DNA of 62,837 bases, filler included. It is 6 parts of 6 records of this genome, joined end to end, with 100 filler letters (N's around TTAATTAATTAA, not from the genome) between each part and the next. Parts side by side here need not be neighbours in the genome. Positions count along the whole stretch, not along the records: positions 30,876 to 41,475 come from SRR31156797_20049; 5 more parts are not named here. The stretch is one strand, 5' to 3'. This document shows positions 9,382-44,446 of this stretch, one piece after another. The notes under the pieces are model-generated. The model saw nothing but the letters and a program-made list of their open reading frames with translations, was not told the origin of the DNA and made no database searches. Position 1 is the stretch's first letter. The number at the start of each line of letters is the position of its first letter. Made by a program: the position numbers and the translations under genes.

Positions 9382-9395
9382 CCTTGATCATCTCC

Positions 9396-13394: not shown

Positions 13395-13649
13395 GTTTAC
13401 GTGCTCCCCCGATATGTAATGTCTATTATAATTTACAATGAACTACTTCTACTTATATGTTTTTTATATAACCATCTTTTAGCAGATTAAAAGCAGAATG
13501 TTTATATCATATTATTTTCGCTTTTTACAAAGTAGACACAGATTATCTTCCCTGTAAATAGCAAAACAGGTCATAAAAGCGAGATTTTAGTAGTGAAACA
13601 ATGGTGTAGCAACCGGATAGATTGCTTTACAAAAAAAAAAGAAGGGGAC

Positions 13650-14685: not shown

Positions 14686-14785
14686 NNNNNNNNNNNNNNN
14701 NNNNNNNNNNNNNNNNNNNNNNNNNNNNNTTAATTAATTAANNNNNNNNNNNNNNNNNNNNNNNNNNNNNNNNNNNNNNNNNNNN
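14686..14785. other. Artificial contig linker
   Basis: N run, TTAATTAATTAA (stops in all six frames), N run; composition changes abruptly across it. Confidence 0.99.
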
Positions 14786-14786
14786 A

Positions 14787-15260
14787 GCAGGAGAAGCAGG
14801 AAAAGGATTTGCAGTAGTCGCAGAGGAGATAAGAAAATTGGCTGGAAATTCAAAAGGTATGGCAGAAGAAATAGAAAATAAAATAGTGGATATTTCGGAT
14901 AAAATTGACTCTACTGTTGAGAAATCAAATAAGAGTAGAAAAAAAGTATCAGGAATGATTGAGGAAATAGATAGGATAGAAACAATATTTACTCAAGTAA
15001 TGGAAGTACTACAAAATGTTATTAAATCAATAGAATTAATTTATGATAATACAAAAAATCAAACTAATGAGTTAAATCATTTAAGTCAGAACTCAGATGA
15101 AGTCAGACTTGCATTTGAAAATATATCAATAAGCATAGAGGAGATAGATCAAGCAATGCTAGACACAAGTAATTCTATTAGCGGGCTGGTTAATGTGGTA
15201 GAAAACTTAACGCAGACCTCAGAGGAGGTGAACCATTCTATAAATAAATTTAGTATATAG
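14787..15260 (+). CDS. Methyl-accepting chemotaxis protein, C-terminal fragment
   Basis: Frame from 14787 reads [19 protein letters not shown], the MCP hairpin tip. Confidence 0.93.
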   Translation, partial: AGEAGKGFAVVAEEIRKLAGNSKGMAEEIENKIVDISDKIDSTVEKSNKSRKKVSGMIEEIDRIETIFTQVMEVLQNVIKSIELIYDNTKNQTNELNHLSQNSDEVRLAFENISISIEEIDQAMLDTSNSISGLVNVVENLTQTSEEVNHSINKFSI

Positions 15261-16154: not shown

Positions 16155-18146
16155 ATGAGTAGAGAGTTAATCATTACAAATGGTGAAGAGTGTATTGGGT
16201 GTAATGCCTGTATAGAAGCTTGTCCAGTAGATTTTGCAAATAAGTTATATAAAACAATTGACGAGGAATTAAAGGTTTCAATTAATACTGAGAACTGTAT
16301 TGCCTGTGGAGAATGTATAAAAGTATGTTCGCATGGTGCACGAGATTTTTATGATGATTCTGAAAAATTTTTATATGAGTTAAAAGCAAAAAATATAGAA
16401 GCTGTTGTTGTTGCACCTGCACTATTGATTAATTATCCTGATGAGTATAAGAAAGTATTTGCTTGGCTAAAAAAAAATGGAGTGGAGCATATATGGGATG
16501 TAAGTTTTGGAGCTGATATTACAACTGTTTTATATGTTAAAGCAATTAAAGAGTTAGATTTAAAAAATATTATAGCACAACCATGTAGGAGCGTCGTTTC
16601 CTCAATAGAACGATATTATCCTAATTTAATAGAGTTGCTAAGTCCTATTGGATCACCGATGCATTGTACTGCGGTATTTATGAAAGAAAATCAAAACATA
16701 AATAATATTTGGGGGATTTCACCTTGTATTTCAAAAGGTGTAGAGTTCGAAGCTCATGAAGCCATTAAAGGAAATGTTTCTTTTAAGACACTAATGAAAG
16801 CGTATAGAAAAGAATCAAAAGAGATAACTGATTATGTCGATTTTGATTCTCCCGAATCATTAGTTGGGTTTTGGTATCCAATTCCAGGTGGTCTAATGGA
16901 GGCAGTTGAACAAGTTTTTGGAAAACAGTATCATATAAAAAGAATTGAAGGTCCTAAAGTAGTGCAAAAATATTTGAAGGAGATTAATAACGATAAAGCG
17001 CAATTACCATTATTAATTGATATTTTAAATTGTACTGAAGGTTGTTCTGTTGGAACAGGAACGGAATACCACGGAAATCAAGTAGAAAATTTACCTTCAA
17101 TTGATGAAATGGATTATTCAATATATGTCAAAAGTAAAAATCTTTTTAAAGAGAATAAAAATCTCTTTAAAAGAAAATCCCCTAAAGACATTGTCAAATT
17201 ATTATATAATAAACTTGATTTAGAAACCTATACTGTTAAGTATAATAATAAAAATACTAGCTATATAGATCAAATTGAGAGTGCCAAAAAAAATATTGAA
17301 AATGGTTTTAACTCTTTACTTAAAATTGAAAATGTCGAAAGGAAACATGATTGTCCGGCATGTGGATTTAATTCCTGTGAAAAAGCTGCATTAGCAATAG
17401 AACTAAATTTAAATGTGCCTGAATCATGTAGAGAATATACTCGGAAAGTTGCGGAACAAGATCGACTAGAAGTTCTTGATAAAGTTGAACTTTTAGAGGA
17501 AGCATTCAATTTAATCAAGTCTTTTTCAAATAAAAATCAGGATTATATGGATGCAACATCAACGCTAACAACAGAACTTTCTTCTGAAGCAAGTAGTTTA
17601 TCAGATTCTAATTTTACAGTAATTTCAAGAGTGGAAAAAATGGTAGATGGAATTAAATCTTCAAATGAAACACTTAACAAAACATCAGAAAGTATAAAAA
17701 TCATAAAAAAAAGAGCTAAGGAATTAAATGTAATATCAAATACTATACAAGGAATTTCTGAACAAACAAATCTCCTAGCCTTAAATGCAGCTATTGAAGC
17801 CGCCAGAGCTGGAACAGCCGGAAAAGGCTTTGGTGTTGTTGCTGATGAAGTAAAAAAACTGGCAGAAAATACAAAAAGGGAAGTTGAAAAGATTAATCCT
17901 TTTGTTGATTGGATTCATAATAAAATATCAGATTTGGAATCAACTTTTGCACAGATTATTAAAAGGTCAAATGTCAACTTGGAGGATGCAGAAATAATAT
18001 ATTCATCAACAGAAGAAATTAATGCAACATTAGATGAACTGACAAATGAAATTACAGCACTAGCTGAAGATAACTCGAGACAAAAAAATGAAATGGAAGA
18101 AAACGAGAGAAAAGTATTTAGAATAAAAATGGAATTAGAGAAATAA
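16155..18146 (+). CDS. Soluble [FeFe]-hydrogenase-like sensor fused to an MCP signalling domain (group C2-like)
   Basis: Two CxxCxxCxxxC motifs, H-cluster-like motifs [13 protein letters not shown] and [12 protein letters not shown], an FeS domain [10 protein letters not shown], and [17 protein letters not shown]. Confidence 0.85.
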
Positions 18147-18159
18147 ACCAAGGAGAATA

Positions 18160-19554
18160 ATGAGCGAATTTAAAAATCAAATTGGAAGTGATATTGATAT
18201 TGAAAAAGTTGATAGATTTATCAAAAAATACAGTAAAAATGATATTAGAAATGAATTAAGAAGCTTTATAATAATAAAAAATAATAAAATATTATTTGAA
18301 TATTGTAAGTCTCCATATAATATCAAAACGCCAACACATGTTTTTTCAGTAAGTAAAACTTTAACTGCGTTAGCTGTAGGCTTAGCTGAGAATGATGGCT
18401 TATTATCCGTTAATGATAGTATTAGTCCGTATTTTCTAGGAGAAATTGAGAATATTGATGAGTTCAAAAATATAAAAATAAAAGATCTTTTAACAATGTC
18501 AACAGGACAAATATATGACATGTTTGAAGAGAATGATTATGTAACTGGTATAAAAGACGAATGGGCAAAGAAGTTTTTCTCAATTCCTATTAAAGAAAAG
18601 ACAGGAGAATTTTTTAAATATAATACCGGAGCATCATATATTTTATCTATTATAATTCAAAAAATAACTGGAGAGTTACTAGTAGATTATATTTATAAAA
18701 ATCTTTTATTCAAAATGGGAATAGATAAACCACATTGGATTTTATCTCCAGAAGGATACTGTGCAGGTGGATTCGGAGCATTTATTACTCTAGAAGATAT
18801 GGTGAAACTAGGACTTCTTTTTTTAAATAAAGGAAAATGGAATAATGAGCAAATAATTTCTAAAGATTGGCTACAGAAATCAAGCTCTTTACAGTGTAAA
18901 ACAGATAACATAGAATTAGGTGACTACGCATTTGGATATGGATACCAAATGTGGATGGGGCGCGGGAACACTTACAAATTAGACGGTGCATATGGTCAAT
19001 TTTCAATTATTTTCCCAAATGATAATATGGTAATTGCTGTTACCTCGAGTATATCTGATAATACTAAAATGTTAGAAGATATTTATGATTTACTATATAA
19101 GGCAGTTTATTCCGATAAGACTGAATTAAATTCTGAAATTATTGATTGGAATGATTATTTTACTAATTCTCAAAATCTAGAAATTACCCCATCGTTAAGA
19201 AGATACAAAGTTGATAAAGATATTTTGGGCTTTAACGAAGTAATAATTGAGTTGAATAAAGACAAATTAGGATTTCAAATAGGGCAACAAAAGAAAATAT
19301 ATTTCAATTATTTTGAATGGTCAAAAACTAAAACATCAATAGATATTTTTGATGATAATATTTTGGTTAAAGGATACTGGGAAAATGAAGGCAAGTTTAA
19401 AGCAAGAATAAGATATGAGAAAACACCATTTATTATTGACTTTGATATTATTTTTTATGAGGATAATCGTATAATGCTAAATTTTTCTAAAAACTTACTT
19501 ACACCGATTGCCAGGGAATATATAGGTGTATTGATTGAGGAAATTCAACTCTGA
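18160..19554 (+). CDS. Serine hydrolase, beta-lactamase class C/esterase family
   Basis: SVSK (SxxK), LLTMSTG, FKYNT, GAYGQ. Confidence 0.85.
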   Translation: MSEFKNQIGSDIDIEKVDRFIKKYSKNDIRNELRSFIIIKNNKILFEYCKSPYNIKTPTHVFSVSKTLTALAVGLAENDGLLSVNDSISPYFLGEIENIDEFKNIKIKDLLTMSTGQIYDMFEENDYVTGIKDEWAKKFFSIPIKEKTGEFFKYNTGASYILSIIIQKITGELLVDYIYKNLLFKMGIDKPHWILSPEGYCAGGFGAFITLEDMVKLGLLFLNKGKWNNEQIISKDWLQKSSSLQCKTDNIELGDYAFGYGYQMWMGRGNTYKLDGAYGQFSIIFPNDNMVIAVTSSISDNTKMLEDIYDLLYKAVYSDKTELNSEIIDWNDYFTNSQNLEITPSLRRYKVDKDILGFNEVIIELNKDKLGFQIGQQKKIYFNYFEWSKTKTSIDIFDDNILVKGYWENEGKFKARIRYEKTPFIIDFDIIFYEDNRIMLNFSKNLLTPIAREYIGVLIEEIQL

Positions 19555-30775: not shown

Positions 30776-30875
30776 NNNNNNNNNNNNNNNNNNNNNNNNN
30801 NNNNNNNNNNNNNNNNNNNTTAATTAATTAANNNNNNNNNNNNNNNNNNNNNNNNNNNNNNNNNNNNNNNNNNNN
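30776..30875. other. Artificial contig linker
   Basis: N/TTAATTAATTAA/N. Confidence 0.99.
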
Positions 30876-30961
30876 TGTGGCGAACTCAAGATTAGTGGCC
30901 ACATTCCGCCGAAAGGACCAAGCATCCTTGAGGAATCGTAGCAATCTGAAGGGGAACGACT

Positions 30962-31480
30962 ATGGCAACTACAACTGACGTCGCAGTCCACTGTCGGGAT
31001 CAAGAGCCGCAGTGCCATGTCACTACACGAAGACACGGACAAACAACAGCTCAGATCGTTGCCGAGAGCAGCTTACAGGAAATCGACCTCAACCCGTTTA
31101 ACTTGGTCATTGATCTTGTCCATATGGATGGCCACTTACGACGTTCCGATGGAACAACAGAAGCACTCTCCGACAGGCTTAGGACGATCCAGGGACAGCC
31201 GCTATGTCTCCTGCTAAAGCTACTCCGACGAGCCGGCGTCTTTCAAGCCCCGTACGACATCGGATATGTGCGTCCTTACAATGAAAGCCAGTTCGTGAAG
31301 GACAACATAATTCAGTATGTAGCGAGGCTTAGGACACGCCTGTTTGGAGAGAATGGAAACAGGCCACATTTCGTATTGACAGTAAGTCGACCCTACAAGG
31401 TTGCCATCAATGGTGATGTCAACTTCTGTTTGATTGAGCCCTGGCGCAATGAAAACACAGACTCAAACAAGACCCACTAG
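30962..31480 (+). CDS. Putative OmpR/PhoB-type winged-helix DNA-binding protein without a receiver domain
   Basis: LLLKLLRRAG..NIIQYVARLRTRLF..PHFVLTV resembles Trans_reg_C; SD-like GAAGGGGA. Confidence 0.55.
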   Translation: MATTTDVAVHCRDQEPQCHVTTRRHGQTTAQIVAESSLQEIDLNPFNLVIDLVHMDGHLRRSDGTTEALSDRLRTIQGQPLCLLLKLLRRAGVFQAPYDIGYVRPYNESQFVKDNIIQYVARLRTRLFGENGNRPHFVLTVSRPYKVAINGDVNFCLIEPWRNENTDSNKTH

Positions 31481-31852
31481 ATGAACCCGAGTGGGGCCAA
31501 GTCGAATGCTATCGATCAGCGTGTCGCGCGGACGCAAGACTACGTATACTTTCACCCAGGTTACAGACTATTCTCGTTCAATGAAGTTCGTATGCAGCCG
31601 CGACAATAGCTTGTCTCATGCCTTTCACAATAGCGCCATCTTTGTACTCTGCGGCATCTATTGAAAATCAATTGCGGCGTGCCGTACTGACTGGCACTAG
31701 AGCGAGCAATCAGAATATAAGTCTCCTGTAACTGACAGGACAGTAGTTCGTCATCAATCTCACTCGCCTCTGTGCAAGAATGTCTATTGAGCCGCGCGCA
31801 CCGTGCGCAAGGCGTAAAGCGTTTGACTGTGACATTGCAGAGAGGACAACCC

Positions 31853-32314
31853 ATGCGAAAGCCGAAACCGATTCCACTCACGCTCGAGCCTTGGCCTGAT
31901 CCTAAACCCAACACACTCTACAGAGGACAAATCATAGGAATCAGCGAAACTAAAAATGCCATTTCCGCGACGCTCAGAACCCTGGACAAGGCCCTAGCTG
32001 GGTTCTTGCAGCACGTGGACCTCTCAAAGGATCTGCACCCCGGCAACAAGACATACCGCTTCGTGCTGGCTGCGGGTTTCGACATCAATACGGTCGGCGT
32101 GCAGATCGATGATTTGCGCCAGGCAATCGGGCGCATTGTTGGCATGCGTTTCGTTCCCACCGACGACGGTTACGAAATCGAATTCGAAAAAGTCACAACA
32201 AAGGCAAAAACCCAAACGACGACGAAACCTCGTTCCTCTGACGCCAGCCATACAGAAGCGCTTGGCGATCTGGAACATCTCTCAGACTCCGAGGAAGACG
32301 TTCTTTCCCTATAG
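31853..32314 (+). CDS. Hypothetical protein, possibly a phage-type OB-fold ssDNA-binding protein
   Basis: SD AGAGGA before ATG 31853; beta-rich core and an acidic tail DSEEDVLSL. Confidence 0.5.
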   Translation: MRKPKPIPLTLEPWPDPKPNTLYRGQIIGISETKNAISATLRTLDKALAGFLQHVDLSKDLHPGNKTYRFVLAAGFDINTVGVQIDDLRQAIGRIVGMRFVPTDDGYEIEFEKVTTKAKTQTTTKPRSSDASHTEALGDLEHLSDSEEDVLSL

Positions 32315-32326
32315 AAAGGATGCCCC

Positions 32327-32524
32327 ATGCAACTACCGGCCCCCAAGGAAGATAGACGAAGATTTCAAGCCTTTGTGCGAGCCTACGGTGAGCTCATCGG
32401 CGATGGCCTGGTCTTTCTGGCCTGGACCGTGGTGGCCTTGGTGGCTGGGGGCATAGCCTTCCTGATCCTTCGTGTCGCGTGGTGGCTGTTGCTACTGGCG
32501 CTTCGAGCGTTGGGAGAGATTTGA
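32327..32524 (+). CDS. Small membrane protein (65 aa)
   Basis: SD AAAGGA; long hydrophobic C-terminal half; packed into the operon. Confidence 0.7.
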   Translation: MQLPAPKEDRRRFQAFVRAYGELIGDGLVFLAWTVVALVAGGIAFLILRVAWWLLLLALRALGEI

Positions 32525-32535
32525 AAGGAACGAAA

Positions 32536-32988
32536 ATGGCCAAGCAAGACCAAGAACCGACCTCAGAAGAACGAGTTGAGACCGTTATTCATGAGCGAGA
32601 CGGCAACGAAATGCGGATCGGCTTCATCAATCGTGAGTATGAGGATGGTGACAATGAACGCACGGAGAAGATCACGGAATACGTAGAGAGCCCCGAAGGC
32701 CACATGTGGGGACCGCATTTCCTGATGAAGGAAGGGCAGAAAGGCAGCCTTGTCGTCTGTGCAGAATGCCGTCGCCGAGCGCGATCGTTCCTTCGCCGGC
32801 GCCGTCCTCAGATGGTATGGACACCCGTAGTATCAGCCCGCAGGTGCTACCGATGCGGCCGTTGGTATTGCAGCCGCGATTACACACTTTCGCGTGACAA
32901 CCATGTTCGGTGCCGGCGGTGCAACCGTTGGTATTTCTTCATCTACCATGTCCTCAGGCCCCTCTTCTTCAAAGAAATCGAACGATGA
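32536..32988 (+). CDS. Zn-finger protein with a hydrophobic/basic C-terminus
   Basis: SD AAAGGAA; CAEC, CYRC, YCSRD and CRRC motifs; stop overlaps the next ATG (ATGA). Confidence 0.72.
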   Translation: MAKQDQEPTSEERVETVIHERDGNEMRIGFINREYEDGDNERTEKITEYVESPEGHMWGPHFLMKEGQKGSLVVCAECRRRARSFLRRRRPQMVWTPVVSARRCYRCGRWYCSRDYTLSRDNHVRCRRCNRWYFFIYHVLRPLFFKEIER

Positions 32989-35114
32989 GTGTTAATCAAC
33001 TTCACAGCCTCATAAAGCGATACTACCTCGACGTGCGTCAACCGGAGAGGTATGCACGGATTGTGCGACGTATCGAGCGAGGCCGAATGACACCCCAACA
33101 GGCTGCCAGGTGGCTGAAGAAACGCAGCTTTCGTCAAGACATTGATCGGCAGATCCGGGAAGGAAACTACCTGCCGCCAGCCCCCATACACGACGATCTG
33201 CAACGCGAGCAACAGACCCCAATGGTAACCATCGGTCACTACAGCGAGCGGCCAGAAGTCGAATTGCAGGTCCCCGTCACACAGGCCGTGCCCCATATGC
33301 TGATCGTGGGTAAGCCAGATTCAGGCAAGTCAGTGACACTGCGTATGTACCTCAAGAGGGTGCACGAACTGGGATTACAGTACCCCGATCGTAAGGTCTC
33401 CTGTGTCCTTTTCGACCCCAAGAAGGACCTGCCCAATCCGAGGACCATCCTCGGCGATGATACGGTGCATCTGACACTTCAGGATCCAAGTAAGGTACGG
33501 TTCGCACTGAACGGACCAGCCGGTGTGCTCGGTTCAGTGTACGCAGCGTCGATGGCCACGGTATTGGGCGCGCGGCTGGGCTTGATCGTCTCGCGCACTT
33601 GCCTCAGTGCCATCTATCTTTGGCTGCTGGGCCTCTTGAATCCCGCGCCAAAGCCGGGGCATCCGATGAGGACACCCAGCGTACGGTTGATCCTGGATGT
33701 GCTCTTGAACAGCCCGACGTACTGCTGGGGCGAGAAGATCGACTATATCAAAACGTTGGTCCAGAAGCTCTCTGCCCTGCTGGTCGATGCCCAAGGTCTG
33801 CTCGATGCCGACCGCGGTTTCGACGTTGTTCAGGACATCATCCTCCAGGGCAAACACTGCGTGATCGATACCTCCAAATTCGAGCCGCCGTACTTGCGCT
33901 ATCTAATCGCCGACATCATCCTGACCCAGTTGCTTCTCTACCGACTTCACAATCACCTCAAGACAACTTCCACCCGTATCTGCCTGGCCTATGATGAAGG
34001 AGACTTCTTTCTGTCGCCAGACGCCCAGGCCGCCTATGTGCAAACCCTCTCTCCGGCCTCAGCGGGGGCTCGATGGTTCCGTGAATACGGAGTCCAGTTT
34101 GTGATTTGCGCCAGCGCCCTGCACCGAATCGATCCTTACCTGGTGACCGGCATGACTTGCACTTTCGCACACTGTACCGTCGATGCCGACTCGATACGAC
34201 AGATCCAGCGGACAATGATGCTCAATCCCGGCACAGAGAGACTATTGCCCGCCTTGAAGGCTGGGCAATGCATCTATCGAGAGGCGCAGGGTCCGTACCC
34301 GTATCCGGGCTTGGTGCAAATCGACCACATAGCACCGGATCACTCAGCCAAGGAAGGACCGTATGACTCCATCTCATTCACTGAGGCCACCGGGCTTGAT
34401 GATCTGCCCTCTATCCAAAAGGCACTGGAAGAACGAATTCGCCAATGTGACAAGGGCAGGCTGCGACGACGCCAGGCGGGCACAACGGCGGCAGCGCTTC
34501 ACAAGACGGCACGCACCTTTCTCGATCATATGTCCCTTCACGAGCATACCCCTCTGGATGTGGTGTTCTCGCATGTGGACCGAGTCGCCGTTGGTACCCA
34601 AAAGAAGATAGTCGACACACTTGTCCGCAAGGGCCTGATCCAGGCCAAGACCGTGCGCACATGCCGATCCTGGACGCGTTTTGGCCAGATCACGGAGAAG
34701 GGGTGGCAATACCTCGGCAAGATCAGCAGGTATCCGGCGCTACGAGGCGGGGTAGTACACACGAACGTCTGCTTCGAAAAGCAGCGCCTGGATCTCAAGC
34801 AAGGTTTTGAAAAATCCTTCTGCGAACACCAACTCGAAGGCAGCGCTGGTTTCCATGACGTTGTGTCAATCAAGGATGGCAAATACTACGTCACCGAAGT
34901 GGTCATCGACTGCGATGCAAACATCGCCCAGCATGCGCGGAATTGCCTGATCAATAGCCAGGCACCTGTAGAAATGCTGACGGTAGTGACTCTGCTGAAA
35001 TCTGAGCACGCCAAGATCCGCGAAACTCTCATGTCCGATTCTGAGCTTGTCTTCCACATCCAGCGTGTCTCTTTCCTTACCGTCGAAGACATCTTGAAGG
35101 AGTTGTACCGATGA
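32985..35114 (+). CDS. HerA/FtsK/VirB4-superfamily ATPase with C-terminal winged helix and PD-(D/E)XK-like domain
   Basis: Walker A HMLIVGKPDSGKS, LFDPK, Walker B LAYDEGD, FREYGV; wHTH LVRKGLI..ITEKG; FHDVV..VTEV. Confidence 0.78.
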   Translation: MSVNQLHSLIKRYYLDVRQPERYARIVRRIERGRMTPQQAARWLKKRSFRQDIDRQIREGNYLPPAPIHDDLQREQQTPMVTIGHYSERPEVELQVPVTQAVPHMLIVGKPDSGKSVTLRMYLKRVHELGLQYPDRKVSCVLFDPKKDLPNPRTILGDDTVHLTLQDPSKVRFALNGPAGVLGSVYAASMATVLGARLGLIVSRTCLSAIYLWLLGLLNPAPKPGHPMRTPSVRLILDVLLNSPTYCWGEKIDYIKTLVQKLSALLVDAQGLLDADRGFDVVQDIILQGKHCVIDTSKFEPPYLRYLIADIILTQLLLYRLHNHLKTTSTRICLAYDEGDFFLSPDAQAAYVQTLSPASAGARWFREYGVQFVICASALHRIDPYLVTGMTCTFAHCTVDADSIRQIQRTMMLNPGTERLLPALKAGQCIYREAQGPYPYPGLVQIDHIAPDHSAKEGPYDSISFTEATGLDDLPSIQKALEERIRQCDKGRLRRRQAGTTAAALHKTARTFLDHMSLHEHTPLDVVFSHVDRVAVGTQKKIVDTLVRKGLIQAKTVRTCRSWTRFGQITEKGWQYLGKISRYPALRGGVVHTNVCFEKQRLDLKQGFEKSFCEHQLEGSAGFHDVVSIKDGKYYVTEVVIDCDANIAQHARNCLINSQAPVEMLTVVTLLKSEHAKIRETLMSDSELVFHIQRVSFLTVEDILKELYR

Positions 35115-35320
35115 AAGCTGCACAATTGGCCGTATTGGCGATTGTCGTTTTGGCCCTGATGAACTGGTCCCGGGGCGAGTATGCTTTCGCTCTGCCAATG
35201 ACGTTGCCCCTGTTAGGCGGTCAAGAACCCTCGATCTACGATCTCGCCGGCGCGATGGTAATCGTCATTGCCATCGCCGGCCTGCTCCGTCTTAGCCGCA
35301 ACCACCGTCACCATGAGTAA
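35111..35320 (+). CDS. Small two-TM membrane protein (69 aa)
   Basis: ATGA overlap with the ATPase stop, SD AAGGAG, two hydrophobic segments. Confidence 0.7.
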   Translation: MKAAQLAVLAIVVLALMNWSRGEYAFALPMTLPLLGGQEPSIYDLAGAMVIVIAIAGLLRLSRNHRHHE

Positions 35321-35353
35321 ACGACCATTATTCCATTAAGAAGGAGACTACCG

Positions 35354-35644
35354 ATGACCTACAAACCCCAAGGCCAGCAAGATCAACCGTCCATGAAGAT
35401 CCCCGAACCGCCCCCGCCAAAGGCGAAGCGAAGCTTGCGTCTGGAGTGGATTCTCATCCCACTCGCCCTGCTTGGCATGGTCTACCTACTTCGAAATATA
35501 GACTCTGCCGTGACATGGGAACAGGTCATGGACCTGTTGCATGTGAAAAACCGCGAGCGTTACACGATGCTCTTTCACATGTGCCTAGCATTGACTTTTG
35601 CCGTTGCCGCAATTCGCATCCTCGGCCGCAAGAACAAGGAATAG
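35354..35644 (+). CDS. Small two-TM membrane protein (96 aa) with a Pro-rich N-terminus
   Basis: SD AAGGAG; two hydrophobic helices. Confidence 0.72.
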   Translation: MTYKPQGQQDQPSMKIPEPPPPKAKRSLRLEWILIPLALLGMVYLLRNIDSAVTWEQVMDLLHVKNRERYTMLFHMCLALTFAVAAIRILGRKNKE

Positions 35645-35714
35645 GGCCCACCCAAGGAGACAGGCCATGTCCATGGAGATCGCATCAAATCCAGCAGAAT
35701 AGGAGGTACAAGAA

Positions 35715-37262
35715 ATGAAGTCAACACTGCTCATATTGATGGTCACCTTGCACCTGATGGTAGCGACCCTCGCTGTCGGCGAAGGCGACTCTGACGGTAT
35801 TGCTCTGACGGTTGTCATTGATTCCCGCTGGTCATGCGGCAACGACATGCCTGAGTTCCGCACGCTTGCTCGTCAGGGAATTGGAGCCTTGCAACTGGGA
35901 GACTGTGTGGAGATCCTCACGGCCCATCCAAGCCGACCGCGTATCCGGTTGGCCCAGACCGCTCGCCGCAGCAGTCCCAGTCAGATGCACTCGGTCAATA
36001 GCGTCCTGTCTAGGATACATGTGGGCTTTCTTTCCGATGCCAAAGTGAGCCGTGCGCTCGCAATGGCGCTCGACCGCCTCGAACGCATCTGCTCGACGCA
36101 GGGCTACCAAAAGGCCATAGTGATTGTCCTTAGTGACGGACATCTGGCCGACTCTGACGTAGCCAGCGTCCTGAAGCTCGCGGCGGAGTTTCGCAAGCGC
36201 GGTTGGCCTCTATATATTACCGGCGATAGGAACACAAACCGCAATCTCCTAATTGCCGCCAATCGGCGCATGATCAATTGGTCGTCCATCGGCGACGCCA
36301 ATCCGGCCCTGTGGCTCCAGCAGGCCCGCATATCAGGGCAGCCTGAGCCGAAGAACAGGCCATCGGGAGAACGCCCCCAAGAAACGAAGATGGCCCCGCT
36401 CGCAGCTGCGGCGGAGACACCTTCAACCCTCGGCGAAACTCCATTGCGTACTGTGCCGCGGCCATCCTATTTTGCTCCGGAATGGCCTGAACGTAATTCG
36501 GCCGCAAGAGGACCGAGGCAACCTCAGGATATCACCACCAGGTCCCGGACTGAGGTTGAGGTGACCTTCTCAGGCGGTTCTTCACCCGCCTCTGCGGCCA
36601 GACCGGATGAGTCATCCTCGGAGGAAGAAGTCGCCGTGGCTCTCAGCATTCCTGAGGAGCCGAATCAGGCGCCGGAGATGCTCAAAGGCGTCAGGACCGA
36701 CAAAGAAGAAACTGATTCCAAGTCCAAGCCACCGATGTGGGGCCAAGTCAAACGTTGGCTTGGCCGCTTCTGGCCTTGGCTTCTGATAGGTCTTTGCGCG
36801 CTTCCAATCATGGCAGTCGGTTACACGTTCGTCCGCGGCAGCCGCCGAGCGGAAGAGATAAGAAGAATACTGCAGGGTTACGTCAGGAAGCCAAAGACCA
36901 GCAACGATGGCATGCTTGTGGTTACCATCAATGGCCAAGCCCGTCACCTGGGTCGACTCAGTCGGCTGCGGCCAATCTATATCGGAAGCGGAGTCAAAAA
37001 CACGATTCGAGTCGTGGAAAAAGGCATCGGCGACCGTCACCTCTGTTTGTACCAGAAAGCGGGGAAGTTGATGGTGCGAAACCTCAGCAAGAATCCCGTC
37101 ACCCTCCGTGGTTTGGCCATAGAACCCAAGGCCAAGCAAGCCGTGGCCCTTCCCACTGTGATCGATCTGACCGAAAGGGTCAAAGTCCGCCTTTCCCTCC
37201 AACAGAACGGTACCGATAGCACAATCCAGAGGAGTGAGAACCATGCCCAAAACAAACAATAA
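35715..37262 (+). CDS. Signal peptide-vWA-linker-TM-FHA-like membrane protein
   Basis: SD AGGAGGT; VVIDSRWS (MIDAS-like) and IVLSDG; Pro/Ser-rich linker; TM WPWLLIGLCALPIMAVGY; FHA-like IYIGSG..GDRH..RNLSKN. Confidence 0.75.
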   Translation: MKSTLLILMVTLHLMVATLAVGEGDSDGIALTVVIDSRWSCGNDMPEFRTLARQGIGALQLGDCVEILTAHPSRPRIRLAQTARRSSPSQMHSVNSVLSRIHVGFLSDAKVSRALAMALDRLERICSTQGYQKAIVIVLSDGHLADSDVASVLKLAAEFRKRGWPLYITGDRNTNRNLLIAANRRMINWSSIGDANPALWLQQARISGQPEPKNRPSGERPQETKMAPLAAAAETPSTLGETPLRTVPRPSYFAPEWPERNSAARGPRQPQDITTRSRTEVEVTFSGGSSPASAARPDESSSEEEVAVALSIPEEPNQAPEMLKGVRTDKEETDSKSKPPMWGQVKRWLGRFWPWLLIGLCALPIMAVGYTFVRGSRRAEEIRRILQGYVRKPKTSNDGMLVVTINGQARHLGRLSRLRPIYIGSGVKNTIRVVEKGIGDRHLCLYQKAGKLMVRNLSKNPVTLRGLAIEPKAKQAVALPTVIDLTERVKVRLSLQQNGTDSTIQRSENHAQNKQ

Positions 37263-40056
37263 CAGACACCGACCCGCACAGTTTCGCATCGAGGCGATAC
37301 TGGGATCAACGCCCAAGGCCGTCGGCAAACTGTACGAGTTGCTGGCAGCTAACCCAAATACACGGGTATGCGTCAAACGTCTCATCTTTGACTCCAAGAA
37401 GCCATCGCCGGCAGACTTGGTGGGGTCAGCGGATGACAACCATTTGCCGTCAGGCACTACCTACGTGCCGGCCGACAAGCCGCAAGGCCAGGTCTCATTG
37501 GATCAAGCCGTACAAGAGGGCTTGATGCGGCCAATCGATGAATCCGGTCGGCAAACCCAGGTTCCCGACAACGATGGCGCCGGCGGCATTCCGCGCGATG
37601 GCCTTGACCGAACCAAGTTAAACGCCAAGAATCTGCGCAAAGCCACCAACCAGTGTCTTCAGAAAGCAATCGAATACCACATCAGAATGACGCCCACCCA
37701 AAAGGGTGAGGGCATCGCCCGTCACAACGTACGCGTGCCGTTCCATATCATCGCTTCGACGGTGGGAGGCATGGGCAGCGGCTCGCTCATTTGGTTTGTC
37801 GTCGAGGGAATCCCTGCTTGCGTCCAAGCCACGGGCGTGGAGGCAAAGATCGTTCCCGAACTGATCAGCCTCGGCAACCTGTCTACACACGACAGCCACC
37901 AAGCCCGGCTAAACGAGTATTGCGCGTTCACAGCCACCCGGGCCCTTGCCACCGGCGCCTATGTGAACCCTGTAACAGGACGGGTACAACCGGCTCCGTT
38001 CGACCACGTTCGACTCTTCTCCAATCGCAACAACGGTGGCAGCATCGCAAGCCTCAAAGAACTTGTACACCATCACGCACAGCTTCATCGTTTCTATTGG
38101 GACACACCGGCCGGGGCCGACATGCAGGAGCGTGAGCCGGACATCGGTCATTGGGGCTACGGGGAGTTTGGAGATCCGCTATGTGGTTACACGGCCTCCG
38201 TGGCGTGTATCCACTGGAACAAGGCCCGACTCCTGGCTTCCCTGGCCTATATGGCCGCTGGACTACTGGCCGAGAAGTTCCTAGCCGAAGGTGACAGTGA
38301 CCAAGTCATAAGGGACGCGGCCTCGCTGGCAGCTATCGCCAACCTGATCGAATCCGAAGAGGAGAATCAGCTGACAAAGACCGTCAGCCACCCCGAAGCG
38401 TTGGCGGGCCAGTCGGTCTACGCGGCCACCGAACAAAGCCTGACCGACCAGATCGCAGGCACCAAAGGAATAGAGAAAGGCGGCCAACTGACCGAGAAGA
38501 TCACTCTGATCCGGGATGAGATCCAGTCGGTCTATCGTCCCTACATGTGCGAGGAAGCCCAAGCGATACTTGACGTAGCCAAAGAGGCGCTCAACCGACG
38601 CCTCGACCAGATCTTGCGGCAATCTTCGGGCCTCTCGAATGCGATCCTGATGCTACAATCGATGGAATCAATCCTGGAGCGGTCCCAAGAGGCGATCGCT
38701 GTCAAGACCAGCGAACTCCAAGAGTTTCTTGCCTCATACGACCAAGCCTTGGCCGAGGCCGCCGAACAGTTGCAGGAGCTCGCCGAGCAGGGCAGGCTCC
38801 GTCGCTCAATTGGTTTTCAGGCGGTGCGAGCGATCAACACAGTGCTGGAAGAGTCCGGTCGTGCCGCTGTCAACTATGAGCTACAGATCACAGCCTGTGC
38901 GGTCGCCACAGAACATGTGCTGGCACCGTTGCGTCAGTTCATCCAGGCCAAACTCGCAGAACTCCTCTCCACCCGTCAGAACCTCGTTGAACTCGTCCCG
39001 CATTGCACCAACATGGCCCGCCATAAGGCTATTGAGCGAACGGTTCACGATCCAGCCGTCGGTCTGGAACTCGTTACTGAAGAGTATGCCAAGGCCTATT
39101 TTGCCGACTATCTGGCCCTCAACAGTGGCGTAAAGAGCGTTGCCGATCACTTGTGGAGCCGGTTCCTGCAGAAACACAGTAGCTTCGATGTGCTGCTCGC
39201 TGCTTCCATGACGCAGACGGAGGCGTCTTTGTTAGACGTATGTCACTCCGTGTTTGAGCCCAGCCTGGAGAACAGCAACGTTTTGATCGAATTTCAGAGG
39301 GTCTATCCCGACGAGCATATCCAACTGGAACTCCTTACCGAATTGGTCAGGGAATGCGAAGGCCGCCTGCGCGTCGAAGGAGAGATCAACAAAGAGGTCG
39401 CATGGATCAAAACCGCCAATGTCCCAGCCGAAGACCAGGCCCAGTGGATGCGACGCATACTCGACAATGTCGACCCCAAGGCCGGCAAATGGCAAGTGGC
39501 GGTCAACCCCGCCGACCCTGAGACCTTCAGCATGGCGCAGCTGCGGGGCGAGATTTCTCTGACGCAGTTCATCAATCGGCTTCGGATCGGAGATGACTAC
39601 GAGACATGGTGTCAGCTTGTAGCACGCGCCGCCGATCCAGTCAGTGCCATTGGAGTGGGTCCTAACGCTACAACCTCTCAATTCAAACGCGTGATCGCGA
39701 AGGCTGCCGCCGCTGGATTGTTGACTCTGGATGCGAATGGCTGCTTTGTATTTCGCTCCTCCACCGGGGAAGCGTGGCTGCTCGGCAAGGATGCAGACGC
39801 GGTTCATGAGAAATTGCAGCCGCAGTTCCAGCAGCTTGTCTTTGCTGAATCCTATTTCGCCGGCCGACTGGTCGACTCTGAGCCGCAGATCGTGGCCAAG
39901 CTCACAGAAATGAAGACCCAGCTTCAGGAGGCCTCTGGCGACAAGCTCCTTGGCCTTTGCGACATCACTACGACGCTCGAATGCATTCAGCAGGCTGACC
40001 TGTTGCGTCCCTGGGCTCGACAGATCCAGAAACACCGCAAGAGGATCAAAGCATGA
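37243..40056 (+). CDS. Tubulin/FtsZ-like protein (FtsZl1/Tubulin_2 type) with a long helical C-terminus
   Basis: SD GAGGAG; GAGGIPRDG, STVGGMGSG (tubulin signature variant), ARLNEYCAF, PFDHVRLFSN; coiled-coil-like region. Confidence 0.8.
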   Translation: MPKTNNNRHRPAQFRIEAILGSTPKAVGKLYELLAANPNTRVCVKRLIFDSKKPSPADLVGSADDNHLPSGTTYVPADKPQGQVSLDQAVQEGLMRPIDESGRQTQVPDNDGAGGIPRDGLDRTKLNAKNLRKATNQCLQKAIEYHIRMTPTQKGEGIARHNVRVPFHIIASTVGGMGSGSLIWFVVEGIPACVQATGVEAKIVPELISLGNLSTHDSHQARLNEYCAFTATRALATGAYVNPVTGRVQPAPFDHVRLFSNRNNGGSIASLKELVHHHAQLHRFYWDTPAGADMQEREPDIGHWGYGEFGDPLCGYTASVACIHWNKARLLASLAYMAAGLLAEKFLAEGDSDQVIRDAASLAAIANLIESEEENQLTKTVSHPEALAGQSVYAATEQSLTDQIAGTKGIEKGGQLTEKITLIRDEIQSVYRPYMCEEAQAILDVAKEALNRRLDQILRQSSGLSNAILMLQSMESILERSQEAIAVKTSELQEFLASYDQALAEAAEQLQELAEQGRLRRSIGFQAVRAINTVLEESGRAAVNYELQITACAVATEHVLAPLRQFIQAKLAELLSTRQNLVELVPHCTNMARHKAIERTVHDPAVGLELVTEEYAKAYFADYLALNSGVKSVADHLWSRFLQKHSSFDVLLAASMTQTEASLLDVCHSVFEPSLENSNVLIEFQRVYPDEHIQLELLTELVRECEGRLRVEGEINKEVAWIKTANVPAEDQAQWMRRILDNVDPKAGKWQVAVNPADPETFSMAQLRGEISLTQFINRLRIGDDYETWCQLVARAADPVSAIGVGPNATTSQFKRVIAKAAAAGLLTLDANGCFVFRSSTGEAWLLGKDADAVHEKLQPQFQQLVFAESYFAGRLVDSEPQIVAKLTEMKTQLQEASGDKLLGLCDITTTLECIQQADLLRPWARQIQKHRKRIKA

Positions 40057-40970
40057 AGCGCAAGTACATCAAACTGCCCGACGGCCGGCTGGCCCCGGCG
40101 CAGATGTCCCGACTCGAAGCCTATCTGCGGGATAGTCAGTCGCTGGCTACCGGCACTAGATCAGCCGTATCGCAGCCAAAGTCACCGGCGCAGCGAGGAG
40201 GCGATGTCGGCTCAACTGATTTCGACATGCAATGCTTGACTGGCCGGGAAATCATCCTTTTTGGAGCTGGCTCTGTCGGTAGCTACTTGGCCAAGTTCCT
40301 TGCCGTCGCTGGCTTGATCCTGCACGTGGTCGATTTCAAGAGAGTCGAGCCCAAGCATCTGCGTGAGGGCCGAACCATATACACAGCCCGAGATCTAGGC
40401 CTGTTGAAGGTTGAGGCCCTCAAACGCCATATTGAGGAAGATCATCCCGGCACCCAGGTACGAACCTATCCCTGCAACGTTGCCCAGTTCACTGACTCCG
40501 ACCTGATCGCGATGTTTCGGCGATGCGTCATTGCCATCCTGGCCATCGATGACCCCGAGCAGATGATCCGGATAGCCGATCTGGCCTACCCGCTCGTGCA
40601 ACTACTGCAAGTGGCGATGCACAGACGTGGACATAGCAGTCACATCATCATCTCGATTCCCTACGTGACGCCCTGCCTGCGATGCACGCTGAGAATTTCC
40701 AGCCCCCATGAGATCAGGCGTCTCGACCGAGAACGGTCAGCCACAGGCGATATCGTGACCTTGGCCAATACGACCGCAAACTTTGCCCTCGATTTGGCCT
40801 GCAGCAAGGTCACCGGTCAAGGCATCACACGCTGGGACATCTCTAAGAACCGCATCTTCATCGCCGGTCGGCGCGATGATGCCGTGAGCCCGGACGGTCC
40901 GGGCCTGCATTACGAGAGGGCCCAGAGACGGCCTGGGTGCCCTGTTTGCAACAACCAACGGCCGTCATAA
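40053..40970 (+). CDS. ThiF/MoeB/E1-like adenylyltransferase
   Basis: FGAGSVG, VVDFKRV..HL, KVEAL, AIDD, Zn pairs CLRC and CPVC; ATGA overlap with the tubulin gene. Confidence 0.88.
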   Translation: MKRKYIKLPDGRLAPAQMSRLEAYLRDSQSLATGTRSAVSQPKSPAQRGGDVGSTDFDMQCLTGREIILFGAGSVGSYLAKFLAVAGLILHVVDFKRVEPKHLREGRTIYTARDLGLLKVEALKRHIEEDHPGTQVRTYPCNVAQFTDSDLIAMFRRCVIAILAIDDPEQMIRIADLAYPLVQLLQVAMHRRGHSSHIIISIPYVTPCLRCTLRISSPHEIRRLDRERSATGDIVTLANTTANFALDLACSKVTGQGITRWDISKNRIFIAGRRDDAVSPDGPGLHYERAQRRPGCPVCNNQRPS

Positions 40971-40981
40971 GGAGTATTGCC

Positions 40982-41287
40982 ATGAATGCTATTGTCGTTC
41001 GTTCTCCCCGCAGCCTTTCGAAGCCCCGGCGGGTTGAGATGGTCAAGTCCACCTCTGCGGTCGGCACCGTCCTCCAGGGCGCTGCGACGACGATCGTCCG
41101 GGGCTTCAGAGGAACTGTGGCCTTGGCGGCTCGGGCACGAGACCTAGCACCCCCCCCTCCCCGGGAGGTTCGCTGGGTCAATGCTCGGCAGATCGATGCC
41201 CCAAAGCCGCGTCCTCCCATAGTACCGGCCCTGCCGCCTGAGCCGCGTCAGGTCAAGGTGCATGACTTCCTGGACATGTTTGATTGA
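40982..41287 (+). CDS. Hypothetical basic, Pro-rich protein (101 aa)
   Basis: SD TAAGGAG overlapping the ThiF stop; ends HDFLDMFD. Confidence 0.6.
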   Translation: MNAIVVRSPRSLSKPRRVEMVKSTSAVGTVLQGAATTIVRGFRGTVALAARARDLAPPPPREVRWVNARQIDAPKPRPPIVPALPPEPRQVKVHDFLDMFD

Positions 41288-41295
41288 CAAACGGC

Positions 41296-41318
41296 GGGGA
41301 GAGGCCTTGCCTCTCCCC
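41296..41318. other. Perfect 10-bp hairpin without a U-tract
   Basis: GGGGAGAGGC-CTT-GCCTCTCCCC, intergenic. Confidence 0.6.
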
Positions 41319-41345
41319 TGCCCCATCCTCGAAAGGATACGGGCC

Positions 41346-41475
41346 ATGGCTGTCAAACCGAAGGACCCCGTGCAGATGCGAAATGCCATCCTGATCGTCG
41401 GTGCCACGATCCTGTTGATCGCCATCCTGGCAGGGCCTGCGATCCCAACGCTGTTCACCACACAGATTGGGCGAC
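41346..41475 (+). CDS. Membrane-anchored or exported protein, 5' fragment
   Basis: SD AAAGGA; MAVKPKDPVQMRN followed by a hydrophobic helix; truncated by the linker. Confidence 0.55.
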
Positions 41476-41575
41476 NNNNNNNNNNNNNNNNNNNNNNNNN
41501 NNNNNNNNNNNNNNNNNNNTTAATTAATTAANNNNNNNNNNNNNNNNNNNNNNNNNNNNNNNNNNNNNNNNNNNN
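41476..41575. other. Artificial contig linker
   Basis: N/TTAATTAATTAA/N. Confidence 0.99.
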
Positions 41576-42570: not shown

Positions 42571-42814
42571 CTCTGCACCTCAATGATTTTTTAAGCTATA
42601 TGTAAGGATATACCAAAAAAAAGGGAAAACATCGTACCAAGGTACAAGAGATGCAAAATTAACCTAATTTGTCATTATTACCATTTGACATATATTACAT
42701 AAAAATACCCTATGTATATTAAAATACACGTGTTAAAGTAATATACTAGCTAACCAAACAAGTCAAACACGATCTATAGTGAACATACAACCATATCAAC
42801 CACCGGAGGAAAGG

Positions 42815-44446
42815 ATGAAAAATTCACTAAGCATTAAATTTAAATTAATTATCTCATTTGTAATTTTACTTATTCTCGTAGCAGTTTTAGGTATCAGTAC
42901 AATTATGACAATTATGAAGCTCGACTCTGCTAACAATACTCAAAACGCACGTGCTTTGCAGATGCGCACCATACTCAACTTTGAAAAGTATATAACCAAC
43001 ATAACTCTCACAGCTATGGACGTAATAATCGACAAATCCGACATGAAAGTCTCCGAAGAGAGAGATGCTAACCTCAAAGAGCTTTTTGCTAATCTTAAAA
43101 AAATCAGTCCGAACCTGATAGAGGCGGCTGATACTGACGCTGAGATTGATGCCGCTCGATATATGGTACAGTCCGTAGAAAATCTTGAACCTATAATAAT
43201 GAAAGATCTTTACAAATTAATAGAGCAAGGTGCAGGTGAGTGGGAATTTGCAAAAATTGACGATGGTATCGATAATGCAGCCGGCGATCTTGAAACTCAG
43301 ATCAACATCATGATCAACTCTATACAGGAAGAAGTAAACGAATCAAGAGAGAACATGCACACAGCATCAAAAGCAGCGGAAACCTCAAGCGTTATCCTTA
43401 TGATAGCTGTGGCCGTGATAAGCATCGGAGCTATAACAATATCTGTGAAAGCTGTCATGACGCCTGTGACCAAGATGACAAATGTAACCGGCGACCTCGC
43501 CAAAGGTGACGGCGACCTGACAAAAAGAATAGAGATAACCTCAAACGATGAGATGAGCAAACTCGGTGCAAACATCAACCTCTTTATAGATAATGTACAC
43601 GATGTTGTCACAAATGTGAGCGAACAATCACAAAACCTTACCAGTGCAAGCTCAGAGCTGGCCGCCACCACAGAAGAGCTCTCCTCGACTTTCAGCGAGC
43701 AGAACATTCAGGTTACAGAAGTAGCATCGGCTATGGAAGAGATGAGCGCATCAAGCGCAGAGGTTCTTAATAGTGTTGAATCGTCACTCATAACAGCGGA
43801 AGAGGCGACGACAAAAACCAGAGAGGGGATAGAAATCCTCAACAAAGCCGTTTCAGATATGGGTAAAATCGAGCATAGTATCTCCGGACTCTCAGAGATT
43901 ATTGCACAGCTTAATAACTCTTCATCCCAGATCGGAGACATCCTTAATGTTATTGACGATATTGCAGACCAGACTAACCTCCTCGCTCTTAATGCGGCTA
44001 TTGAGGCGGCAAGAGCTGGTGAGCACGGGCGAGGATTCGCTGTCGTTGCTGATGAGGTCAGAAAGCTGGCTGAAAGGACACAAAGTGCTACCGGCGAAGT
44101 GGAGACAATTATCAAATCGCTCCAGAGCGAAAGCGGAAAGGCCTCTGAGAATATGGAATCAGCTCTACAGTCAGTTAACAGAGGAAGCGAAGTTGTAAAT
44201 GAAACAAGTCATATTTTTGCTCAGGTGAGCGAAGCTATAGAAAATGTAAACACTAACAACAGCATGGTTGGAGCTGCCGTACGAGAAGAGAGCAGCACAA
44301 TCGCAAGTGTTAATGATAACGTACAGGTTATCGCATCTGCCGTAGAGCAGAGTTCTAAAGCTGTATCTGAAGTGGCTCTGACAGTCTCTTCACTCCAGCA
44401 GCTTGCACTTGAGCAGGATAATATGATAGGAAAATTTAAAATCTAA
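42815..44446 (+). CDS. Methyl-accepting chemotaxis protein
   Basis: Two TM segments, HAMP (GDLTKR), [31 protein letters not shown]. Confidence 0.96.

Follow-up and report, generated by a model that had tools for sequence, protein, structure and literature searches.

A HerA-fold ATPase core and a variable cassette slot in a family of probable tRNA-integrating Planctomycetota elements

What does a locus do that sets a HerA-type ATPase beside a von Willebrand factor A (vWA) receptor, a tubulin-like protein and an E1-like adenylating enzyme? The question is posed by an entire 10.6-kb contig at positions 30876-41475 of a 62,837-nucleotide window, the whole stretch of DNA analysed here, which is made up of six such contigs. 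The contig is probably the central part of an integrative element, cut at both ends. It belongs to a family of tRNA-integrating mobile elements so far found only in Planctomycetota. Its twelve genes (g1-g12) divide into a conserved core, g1-g7, which includes the HerA-fold ATPase g5, and a cassette, g8-g12, in a slot that holds other genes in sister elements. We put the probability at roughly 40% that the element encodes a DNA-translocation motor gated by an envelope-sensing slot cassette.

The contig stands apart from the rest of the window. Runs of N at 30776-30875 and 41476-41575 flank it, the window spacers consisting of paired 44-N runs with a 12-base spacer between them, and its GC content is about 0.55 against 0.27-0.47 in the contigs either side. 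Because of the N runs and the GC difference, its window neighbours are not physically linked to it. The preliminary description had already called the contig truncated and counted at least twelve co-oriented genes with four overlaps. The spacers at both ends and the positions of the open reading frames (ORFs) agree with it: all twelve lie on the plus strand, and they overlap at 32985-32988 (g4/g5), 35111-35114 (g5/g6), 37243-37262 (g8/g9) and 40053-40056 (g9/g10). These are genes rather than chance ORFs, because colinear orthologues with 30-70% amino-acid identity occur in other assemblies. Predicted promoters and terminators on the contig were no better than in shuffled sequence (4 versus 5.2 expected and 13 versus 9.5 expected, respectively).

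Gene order is conserved across related loci. We scanned 24 regions with hidden Markov models (HMMs) iterated from the window proteins. g4-g11 are colinear in a Pirellulales metagenome-assembled genome (MAG; locus L001), a Sedimentisphaerales MAG (L002) and a metagenome contig (L003). The full g4-g10 set recurs in L030, L031 and L039; L071 carries the 3' part of g5 through g10, and L063 carries g6-g10. g8 lies directly upstream of g9 in all 16 loci with that side visible, and a HerA-like ATPase gene lies within about 5 kb of the g8-g9 pair in 14 of 14 loci with enough flank. An E1 gene follows g9 in 10 of the 15 loci whose downstream side is visible and is missing in the other five. One locus, L066, has two divergent HerA-like ATPase genes (12498-14261 and, on the minus strand, 17182-18915) upstream of a single g8-g9 pair.

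Two outcomes had been named beforehand as fatal to the preliminary description: a gene order found in no other genome, or a full match to a defined system. The order is kept in Planctomycetota MAGs and metagenomes, and the PADLOC database (2023 version) gave only single-domain matches. The accompanying idea of a single operon survives as conserved gene order; the E1-less loci and nine related loci that have the g1-g7 core without g8-g10 speak against an obligate twelve-gene unit.

The family is sparsely distributed. A word-based search of 5.8 billion clustered proteins returned nine g9 relatives, and a full HMMER search of 1.84 billion representatives returned 187 (E ≤ 1e-3), mostly about 940 amino acids long; g5 has 19 relatives. 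In an even phylum-wide sample, a g5 relative occurred in 1 of 401 genomes, the query genome itself. Within the order of the Pirellulales MAG, g5 relatives occurred in 20 and g9 relatives in 16 of 401 genomes, both counts including two query genomes. Scans of IMG/VR with g9 and with the g5 profile found no relative.

The related loci lie in elements that probably integrate beside tRNA genes, in line with the earlier proposal of a mobile-element-borne locus. After the module of L003 come a g2-like gene, the gene for a small PC4-like protein recognised by eye from the sequence (a predicted single-stranded DNA-binding protein, SSB), two archaeo-eukaryotic primase (AEP) genes, a Xis-like helix-turn-helix gene and an integrase. 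The tyrosine integrase (PF00589, 5.4e-19) is directly adjacent to a tRNA-Arg gene that has its 3' end towards the element. Integrases beside a tRNA gene in this orientation also occur in L034, L035, L040, L041 (tRNA-Met) and L039 (tRNA-Phe), and four further g9 loci have integrases within about 5 kb. Xis-like genes are present in L003 and L031. The first L003 primase gene matches phrog_16345 at 4.4e-28, and the second is its paralogue by HMM. Minimal elements span only about 11 kb (L040, L041). Apart from the putative motor and the slot, the element encodes only integration, replication and regulation.

Some further features of these elements stand on their own. The tandem primase paralogues of L003 (15535-17759) are 33% identical; L002 has just one such gene. 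Genes for class II ribonucleotide reductase, with about 64% mutual identity, occur in L030 (16191-18563), L031 (2373-4657, minus strand) and L034 (6341-8710, minus strand), and a radical-SAM gene sits in a comparable place in L035 and L039. Two candidate pairs of attachment (att) sites, one of 16 nt in L003 (at 2717 and 19942) and one of 13 nt in L040, were rejected as wrongly placed or too weak. In L042, a 48-nt exact repeat (10165-10212) of part of a tRNA-Phe gene (10491-10565) lies about 300 nt upstream of that gene, near a distant HerA-like ATPase gene (12999-15104, minus strand), and may be an att remnant of another element.

A constant core surrounds a variable slot. Nearly all close loci contain g1, g2, g4, g5, g6, g7 and the PC4-like gene, some with g3 as well, and what lies between g7 and the PC4-like gene differs among elements. 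In the window and in L002, L003, L030, L031, L039, L063 and L071, the slot holds g8-g9, with or without g10-g11, plus g12. L038, L032 and L040 carry a PP2C protein, a Zn-ribbon-FHA protein, a Ser/Thr kinase-FHA protein and a vWA protein there; L041 and L036 carry an Hsp70-like protein with a vWA protein, and L034 a vWA protein with PP2C and kinase-like proteins. The slot of L037 holds a 1269-amino-acid SF1 helicase (PADLOC MkoA, 4e-98) and a Clp-like ATPase (PDC-M37B, 3e-34), and those of L033 and L035 hold an E2-like protein with a JAB-E1 fusion (PDB matches to BubB at 9e-6 and to BubCD at 1e-16 over residues 26-423). vWA and/or FHA domains are present in four of the six slot types. The nine loci that have the core without g8-g10 hold other gene sets there, and some of these match defence models.

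The gene sets of three sister elements merit description in their own right. The L037 set (4995-13021, minus strand) comprises the Mokosh-like MkoA helicase, unknown 486- and 378-amino-acid proteins and the Clp/AAA_2 ATPase, which matches both PDC-M37B and DolB. On a complete chromosome, L033 carries a complete PDC-M68A/B pair of ABC-3C type (HNH_2 plus CTD10, DUF2326 plus CTD10) between g6 and g7 at 8653-11347, matched over the full length at 4.5e-76 and 6e-195. The E2-like and JAB-E1 genes (L033, 14157-16154; L035, 7733-9601) are related to Citrobacter BubB/BubCD. Their E2 has no fused ubiquitin-like protein (Ubl), and the pair may be a Ubl-less variant of type I Bub operons. In L035 it is followed by an unknown 214-amino-acid protein and a g12-like membrane protein.

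The g8-g9 pair tracks the ATPase across the family. In the ATPase tree, one clade (SH-aLRT 97) unites the six close g8-g9 loci and L043, in which the slot is not visible. Another clade, distant from the first, contains g8-g9 loci only, and the other cassette types interleave. Mapped on the tree, the g8-g9 label requires 4 changes against a shuffled mean of 8.7, and none of 500 shuffles reached so low a count. The tree comes from a quick maximum-likelihood search in IQ-TREE and includes split-frame fragments (two rows for L041) and the long branches L042, L064 and L066. This pattern fits long co-inheritance of g8-g9 with the ATPase, short of proving that they act together. A cassette exchange in L002, where g5 is 30% and g9 62% identical to the window copies, was considered and rejected, as the tree places L002 inside the g8-g9 clade on a long branch.

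The centre of the core is a three-domain ATPase. Gene g5 (32985-35114) encodes a P-loop ATPase of the HerA/VirB4/DndH fold (residues ~77-452), a MarR-like winged helix-turn-helix (wHTH; 505-579) and a restriction-endonuclease-fold domain (591-709), as judged from its profile and its structural model (AlphaFold, pLDDT confidence 89.5). It carries Walker A and B motifs and has the P-loop fold of the HerA/FtsK/VirB4 superfamily. A profile of 21 sequences matches solved HerA chains at 5.8e-10; single-sequence PDB searches with g5, as with g9, gave no match. In BFVD, g5 matches phage HerA-like proteins (1.1e-13), a Haloarcula virus PH1 protein annotated as a putative ATPase (1.5e-7) and an NTPase from Corticoviridae (4e-6), and in PADLOC it matches mad8 (5.3e-7) and HerA (E 0.014). 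In the C-terminal domain D625 and E638 are nearly invariant. The canonical Lys of the D...(D/E)xK motif is not in place, so the nuclease is supported as a fold and not as an activity. An Atlas lead to Replic_Relax for the g5 C-terminus (0.84) was set aside as too weak, the other clusters being unnamed.

The remaining core genes are small. Nearly all the domain labels first given to the contig (wHTH, Zn-finger, ATPase, small transmembrane (TM) proteins, vWA-TM-FHA, tubulin-like, ThiF/E1) held. g1 (30962-31480) encodes an OmpR/PhoB-type winged-helix DNA-binding protein, probably the element's regulator; its profile of 11 orthologues matches RstA (E 1.2e-6), all 39 PDB matches listed are OmpR-family DNA-binding domains, and the gene is kept in the backbone of most related loci. 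g2 (31772-32314; start codon uncertain) is a backbone gene with orthologues in related loci. Its earlier label as SSB-like found no family match in Pfam, PHROGs or NCBIfam, the Pfam scan taking in the ten window proteins g1-g10. What stands of it is a lead: g2 may be a DUF669-like single-stranded DNA-binding protein, since phage DUF669-like clusters are its nearest by Atlas feature score (0.90).

The ATPase gene is set among small membrane proteins. g3 (32327-32524) encodes a 65-amino-acid protein with a single hydrophobic segment (residues 29-47), with weak orthologue matches in three loci. g4 (32536-32988) encodes a Zn-ribbon protein with three CxxC motifs and a weak Zn_ribbon match; it always lies immediately 5' of the ATPase gene and is kept there in related loci. 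g6 (35111-35320; 69 amino acids), kept after g5, and g7 (35354-35644; 96 amino acids), the conserved last gene of the core, each encode two hydrophobic segments. Small TM proteins lie on both sides of g5 in nearly all loci.

The first cassette gene encodes a predicted receptor. An alignment of four orthologues gives g8 (35715-37262) a signal peptide, a predicted vWA domain outside, a low-complexity linker, a TM segment at residues 352-370 and a predicted FHA domain inside. VWA matches occur in all four orthologues (best 6.7e-5), the window copy scoring 14.3 bits, below the Pfam cut-off of 23.8. FHA matches likewise occur in all four (best 1.6e-4), with the window copy at 15.6 bits, below the cut-off of 20.7. 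The g8 profile found nothing useful in PDB, and no PADLOC model matched.

Its partner g9 (37243-40056) is a divergent FtsZl1/Tubulin_2-like protein. Profile and model give it a tubulin/FtsZ-fold N-domain (residues ~12-298), a long helical or coiled-coil middle, modelled with helices at 409-457, 463-515 and 524-597, and a mixed C-terminal domain. The N-domain has the GTPase-domain fold of tubulin and FtsZ. g9 scores 21.8 bits against PF13809 (Tubulin_2), below the gathering cut-off of 27; 8 of 11 family members match it at E ≤ 0.01 (best 1.7e-6), and two of nine database homologues have a precomputed match. A T4-like GG(M/T)G(S/N/T)G motif is nearly invariant (G175, G178 and G180, assigned by eye). 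With its FtsZ-like N-domain, coiled coil, helical C-terminus and adjacent vWA gene, the protein fits FtsZl1 in architecture. In PADLOC it has only a marginal PbeC match (E 0.03). A likeness to Tfb1 appeared only in weak profile matches to PDB, which we took as chance.

The cassette continues with an adenylating enzyme. g10 (40053-40970) encodes a ThiF/E1-like protein with a GxGxxG motif and a Cys4 zinc site, and its ThiF match of 58.5 bits exceeds the cut-off of 28.1. GAGSVG lies at residue 71, and CLRC at 208 and CPVC at 296 are invariant in six of six orthologues, in which the four zinc ligands are the only invariant cysteines; a conserved catalytic Cys, as in canonical E1, is missing. Its profile matches UBA5 best (1.7e-9), then MccB (3e-6), and BubCD is not among the matches at E ≤ 0.001. 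The E1-E2 models of PADLOC align only over their E1 part, and neither Pfam nor PADLOC detected an E2, Ubl, JAB or DUF6527 gene beside the E1 in the window.

A protein with a fixed C-terminus follows the enzyme. g11 (40982-41287) encodes a Pro-rich protein of about 100 amino acids ending in an invariant Phe-Asp. A frame of about 90-135 codons stands directly after the E1 gene in all ten E1-bearing loci. The products are 19-42% identical and poorly conserved except at their end, which reads D-x-F-D in eight, N-M-F-D in one and K-V-F-D in one. In six frames of 436.7 kb from 27 loci, only 11 frames of at least 60 amino acids end in FD. Ten of these directly follow the E1 gene, and none lies in the five g8-g9 loci that lack an E1. 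We infer that g11 is a candidate substrate or partner of g10 through its C-terminal Asp. The contig ends within g12 (41262-41475), the 5' part of a gene for a polytopic membrane protein. Orthologues occur in L002, L003, L030, L031, L063, L069 and L071, the L003 copy having four hydrophobic segments.

How might these parts work together? In the reading we favour, g1-g7 would form the element's membrane-associated DNA motor. The wHTH of g5 would recognise element DNA, which would then be cut by the nuclease-fold domain and pumped by the hexameric ATPase through or at a channel of the small TM proteins. The slot cassette g8-g12 would be a switch or scaffold for this motor. We read it so because the slot cassettes share an external vWA with an internal FHA or phospho-signalling component, as PpkA, PppA and Fha1 do. 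The external vWA of g8 would sense an envelope or contact cue, and its internal FHA would recruit the tubulin-like GTPase g9, which would assemble at that site. g10 may adenylate g11 at its C-terminal Asp, so that a component is modified or tethered. Sister cassettes (PP2C, FHA, Ser/Thr kinase and vWA; Hsp70 and vWA) would do the same job through phosphorylation or chaperone cycles. It is doubtful that the locus goes further and makes a new DNA-export or transfer apparatus, that is, a cytoskeleton-gated conjugation or vesicle/particle export machine with a HerA motor-nuclease, an assembly triggered by vWA, FHA and tubulin, and E1 licensing of an FD-ending protein.

Several points weigh against the gated motor. 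Folds and genomic context are the source of every function it assigns. Common ancestry of entire elements could by itself produce the grouping seen on the ATPase tree, and the sample carries a selection bias, as some g8-g9 loci came from searches with g9. The slot may simply be a cargo hotspot, since defence-type genes and the Bub-like pair occupy it. By structure, g5 is nearest mostly to HerA-type proteins of defence or repair (DndH, SIR2-HerA, DUF4297-HerA, HerA-NurA), which do not separate clearly from conjugation ATPases, and NCBIfam gave g5 only a weak sub-threshold EccCb match. The MIDAS motif DxSxS of the vWA domain reads DTSWS in three of four g8 orthologues and DSRWS in the window copy. 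In g9 the loop after the first strand reads GST.KA, so that T1, assigned by eye, is not glycine-rich, and the N-domain is modelled at low confidence (pLDDT 30-70). We found no att repeats of the tRNA 3' part in L003, L034, L035, L039, L040 or L041. Neither a relaxase nor a coupling or mating-pore protein was recognised by Pfam, and Pfam and PHROGs matched no virion family, capsids included.

A possible, if somewhat unlikely, alternative is that g8-g12, perhaps with g5 as a fused HerA-nuclease effector, are defence or conflict cargo, an anti-phage or anti-plasmid system in the cargo hotspot of an integrative element or satellite. The vWA-FHA protein would then sense infection or envelope damage, polymerisation of the tubulin-like NTPase would set a threshold, the E1 would modify a target or effector, and death of the cell or the invader would follow through the four-TM protein or the nuclease. 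Such a system would be at home beside the MkoA-like helicase (4e-98) and the PDC-M37B/DolB-like ATPase in the slot region of sister elements and the PDC-M68A/B pair of L033, and defence HerA complexes and DndH are among the solved structures nearest to g5. The Bub-like E2 and JAB-E1 also sit in the slot, and the Bub preprint (10.1101/2024.11.21.623953) suggests an immunity role for Bub operons from genomic context. Tubulin with vWA, Hsp70, and kinase with phosphatase, themes of the conflict systems in the main text of PMC7159879, alternate there as well. The defence models themselves fit the cassette poorly: none matches g8, g9 reaches only PbeC at 0.03, and g10 covers only the E1 part of E1-E2. 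Free-moving cassettes would not be expected to stay beside a HerA-like ATPase in 14 of 14 loci and to follow its phylogeny, and the g1-g7 core, unlike variable cargo, is conserved in nearly all close elements. GAP1-N2, the defining GTPase of the tubulin systems in PMC7159879, was also not detected by Pfam among g1-g10 of the window.

A temperate virus or virus-like particle whose capsid is not recognisable is improbable. It would resemble membrane-containing or pleolipovirus-like viruses, with g5 as packaging ATPase-nuclease, g8 as a spike on the surface (anchored by its TM segment, the vWA facing out and the FHA facing in) and an envelope containing the small TM proteins. Class II ribonucleotide reductases, which the sister elements L030, L031 and L034 carry, are commoner in phages than in conjugative elements. 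The phage DUF669-like lead for g2 and the BFVD matches of g5 to phage, Haloarcula virus PH1 and Corticoviridae ATPases lean the same way. Set against this, Pfam and PHROGs found no capsid, portal, tail or other virion family, scans of IMG/VR with g9 and with the g5 profile found no relative, g5 is about three times as long as the matched packaging ATPases of membrane viruses (chains of 204-240 amino acids), and the minimal elements of L040 and L041 measure only about 11 kb. Least probable is a segregation system in which g9, TubZ/PhuZ-like, would partition or position the excised replicon with g8 as its membrane anchor. Only the fold of g9 fits this. We recognised no TubR-like adaptor or centromere repeats, a partition system has no need of the external vWA of g8, the g9 sequence falls on the Tubulin_2/FtsZl1 side rather than with TubZ, and kinase/phosphatase or Hsp70 sets replace g9 in sister elements.

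The family places the FtsZl1-type tubulin-vWA pair in a defined setting that recurs, namely a small self-integrating element with a putative DNA motor. After 15 years of prediction from context alone, the function of that pair becomes testable. The adenylating enzyme and the Phe-Asp-ending protein are a candidate new E1-substrate pair that can be tested with two purified proteins. To our knowledge few mobile elements have been described in Planctomycetota, and the family described here adds to them. Its slot collects vWA/FHA/kinase, Hsp70, ubiquitination-like and known defence genes, and marks a place to seek further conflict or regulatory systems.

The rest of the window shows further features. 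With GC content ranging from 0.27 to 0.58 between contigs, more than one organism may be present in the bin. Positions 13234-13310 hold a tRNA-Lys gene. Unrelated to the element are two genes nearby: the start of the next contig (41576-42570, minus strand) encodes a repeat-rich acidic adhesin-like protein with repeated ...DPDGD...TYTP... units, and 42779-44446 (plus strand) encodes a 555-amino-acid protein resembling a methyl-accepting chemotaxis protein.

The closest precedent for the cassette is the FtsZl1 (Tubulin_2)-vWA operon of Makarova & Koonin 2010 (PMC2875224); PMC9871819 equates Tubulin_2 with FtsZ-like. As the main text of PMC2875224 describes them, these operons share with g8-g9 the FtsZ-like N-domain, coiled coil and helical C-terminal region, inserts in the T1-to-T4 region, a neighbouring vWA gene whose product has a signal peptide or TM segment, and membrane-associated neighbours. 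The vWA half of the earlier statement that FtsZl1 proteins co-occur with vWA and FHA proteins is borne out; that main text mentions neither FHA nor ThiF, the supplementary files lying outside this check. g9 differs in scoring below the Pfam cut-off and in forming a small separate family (187 of 1.84 billion). The vWA of g8 is fused through a TM segment to an FHA domain, and the window has no kinase or GTPase gene in their company. The g8-g9 pair stands in an integrative element beside a HerA-type ATPase, with an E1 and FD-tailed protein in 10 of 15 loci.

A tubulin and vWA theme also runs through the GAP1-N2 GTPase-centric conflict systems of Kaur et al. 2020 (PMC7159879). The likenesses, on its main text, are a tubulin that carries a coiled-coil or helical domain at its C-terminus, a vWA protein bound to the membrane with the vWA outside, and mutually exclusive Hsp70 or kinase-phosphatase alternatives. 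The constant partner differs: a HerA-fold ATPase takes that place here, together with a Zn-ribbon protein and small TM proteins. A GAP1-N2 GTPase and a fibronectin type III (FNIII)-repeat protein had no Pfam match among g1-g10 of the window, and none was noted in L002 or L003. The terms 'ThiF' and 'E1-like' are absent from the main text of that paper.

The element's overall plan resembles that of small actinomycete integrative and conjugative elements (AICEs), which combine an FtsK-like TraB translocase with Spd proteins, and of archaeal Ced, a DNA-import system. Shared features are small size, integration at a tRNA gene, a tyrosine integrase, an Xis and element-encoded replication genes, together with one FtsK/HerA-superfamily ATPase that has a wHTH for DNA recognition, and several small membrane proteins. 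AICEs carry no vWA/tubulin/E1 cassette. g5 lacks a TM segment of its own, has a nuclease-fold domain and is nearer in fold to DndH, VirB4 and HerA than to FtsK, and transfer is putative here. With DndFGH, SIR2-HerA, DUF4297-HerA and HerA-NurA, known to us by their PDB titles, g5 shares a HerA-type ATPase fold with a nuclease-type partner domain. Unlike these complexes, it fuses the nuclease-fold domain and a wHTH in one chain, its gene is part of an integrative-element backbone among TM-protein genes, and PADLOC HerA reaches it only at E 0.014.

The predicted switch recalls the gating of the type VI secretion machine by PpkA, with its extracellular vWA, PppA and Fha1, as set out in PMC3224232. 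On the predicted architecture of g8, both have an extracellular vWA sensor, a TM segment and an FHA scaffold, and sister slots hold PP2C, FHA, Ser/Thr kinase and vWA proteins. The window cassette differs in having no kinase or phosphatase, in fusing the FHA to the vWA and in placing a tubulin-like protein where the kinase and phosphatase would be; no type VI secretion genes accompany it. For g10-g11 the comparison is with Bub/6E (10.1101/2024.11.21.623953), MccB-MccA and UBA5, which have a homodimer-type ThiF fold, a Zn site and an adjacent small protein with a conserved C-terminus. BubCD, like g10, has no catalytic cysteine. The window differs from Bub/6E in having no E2, JAB or DUF6527 genes, and g11 differs from the partners in Bub/6E, MccA and UBA5 systems in being Pro-rich, without a predicted beta-grasp Ubl, and in ending in Phe-Asp rather than Gly or Asn.

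Two components of the locus are of known kinds: the vWA-FtsZl1 pairing, and integrative elements with FtsK/HerA ATPases. A literature search found no description of the combination, and the supplementary tables of PMC2875224, PMC7159879 and the Bub preprint might list such neighbourhoods. New are the fixed union of the vWA-FtsZl1 pair with a HerA-ATPase element in a Planctomycetota family, the vWA-TM-FHA fusion, the fusion of ATPase, wHTH and nuclease fold in one chain, the variable slot, and the E1 with its FD-tailed protein.

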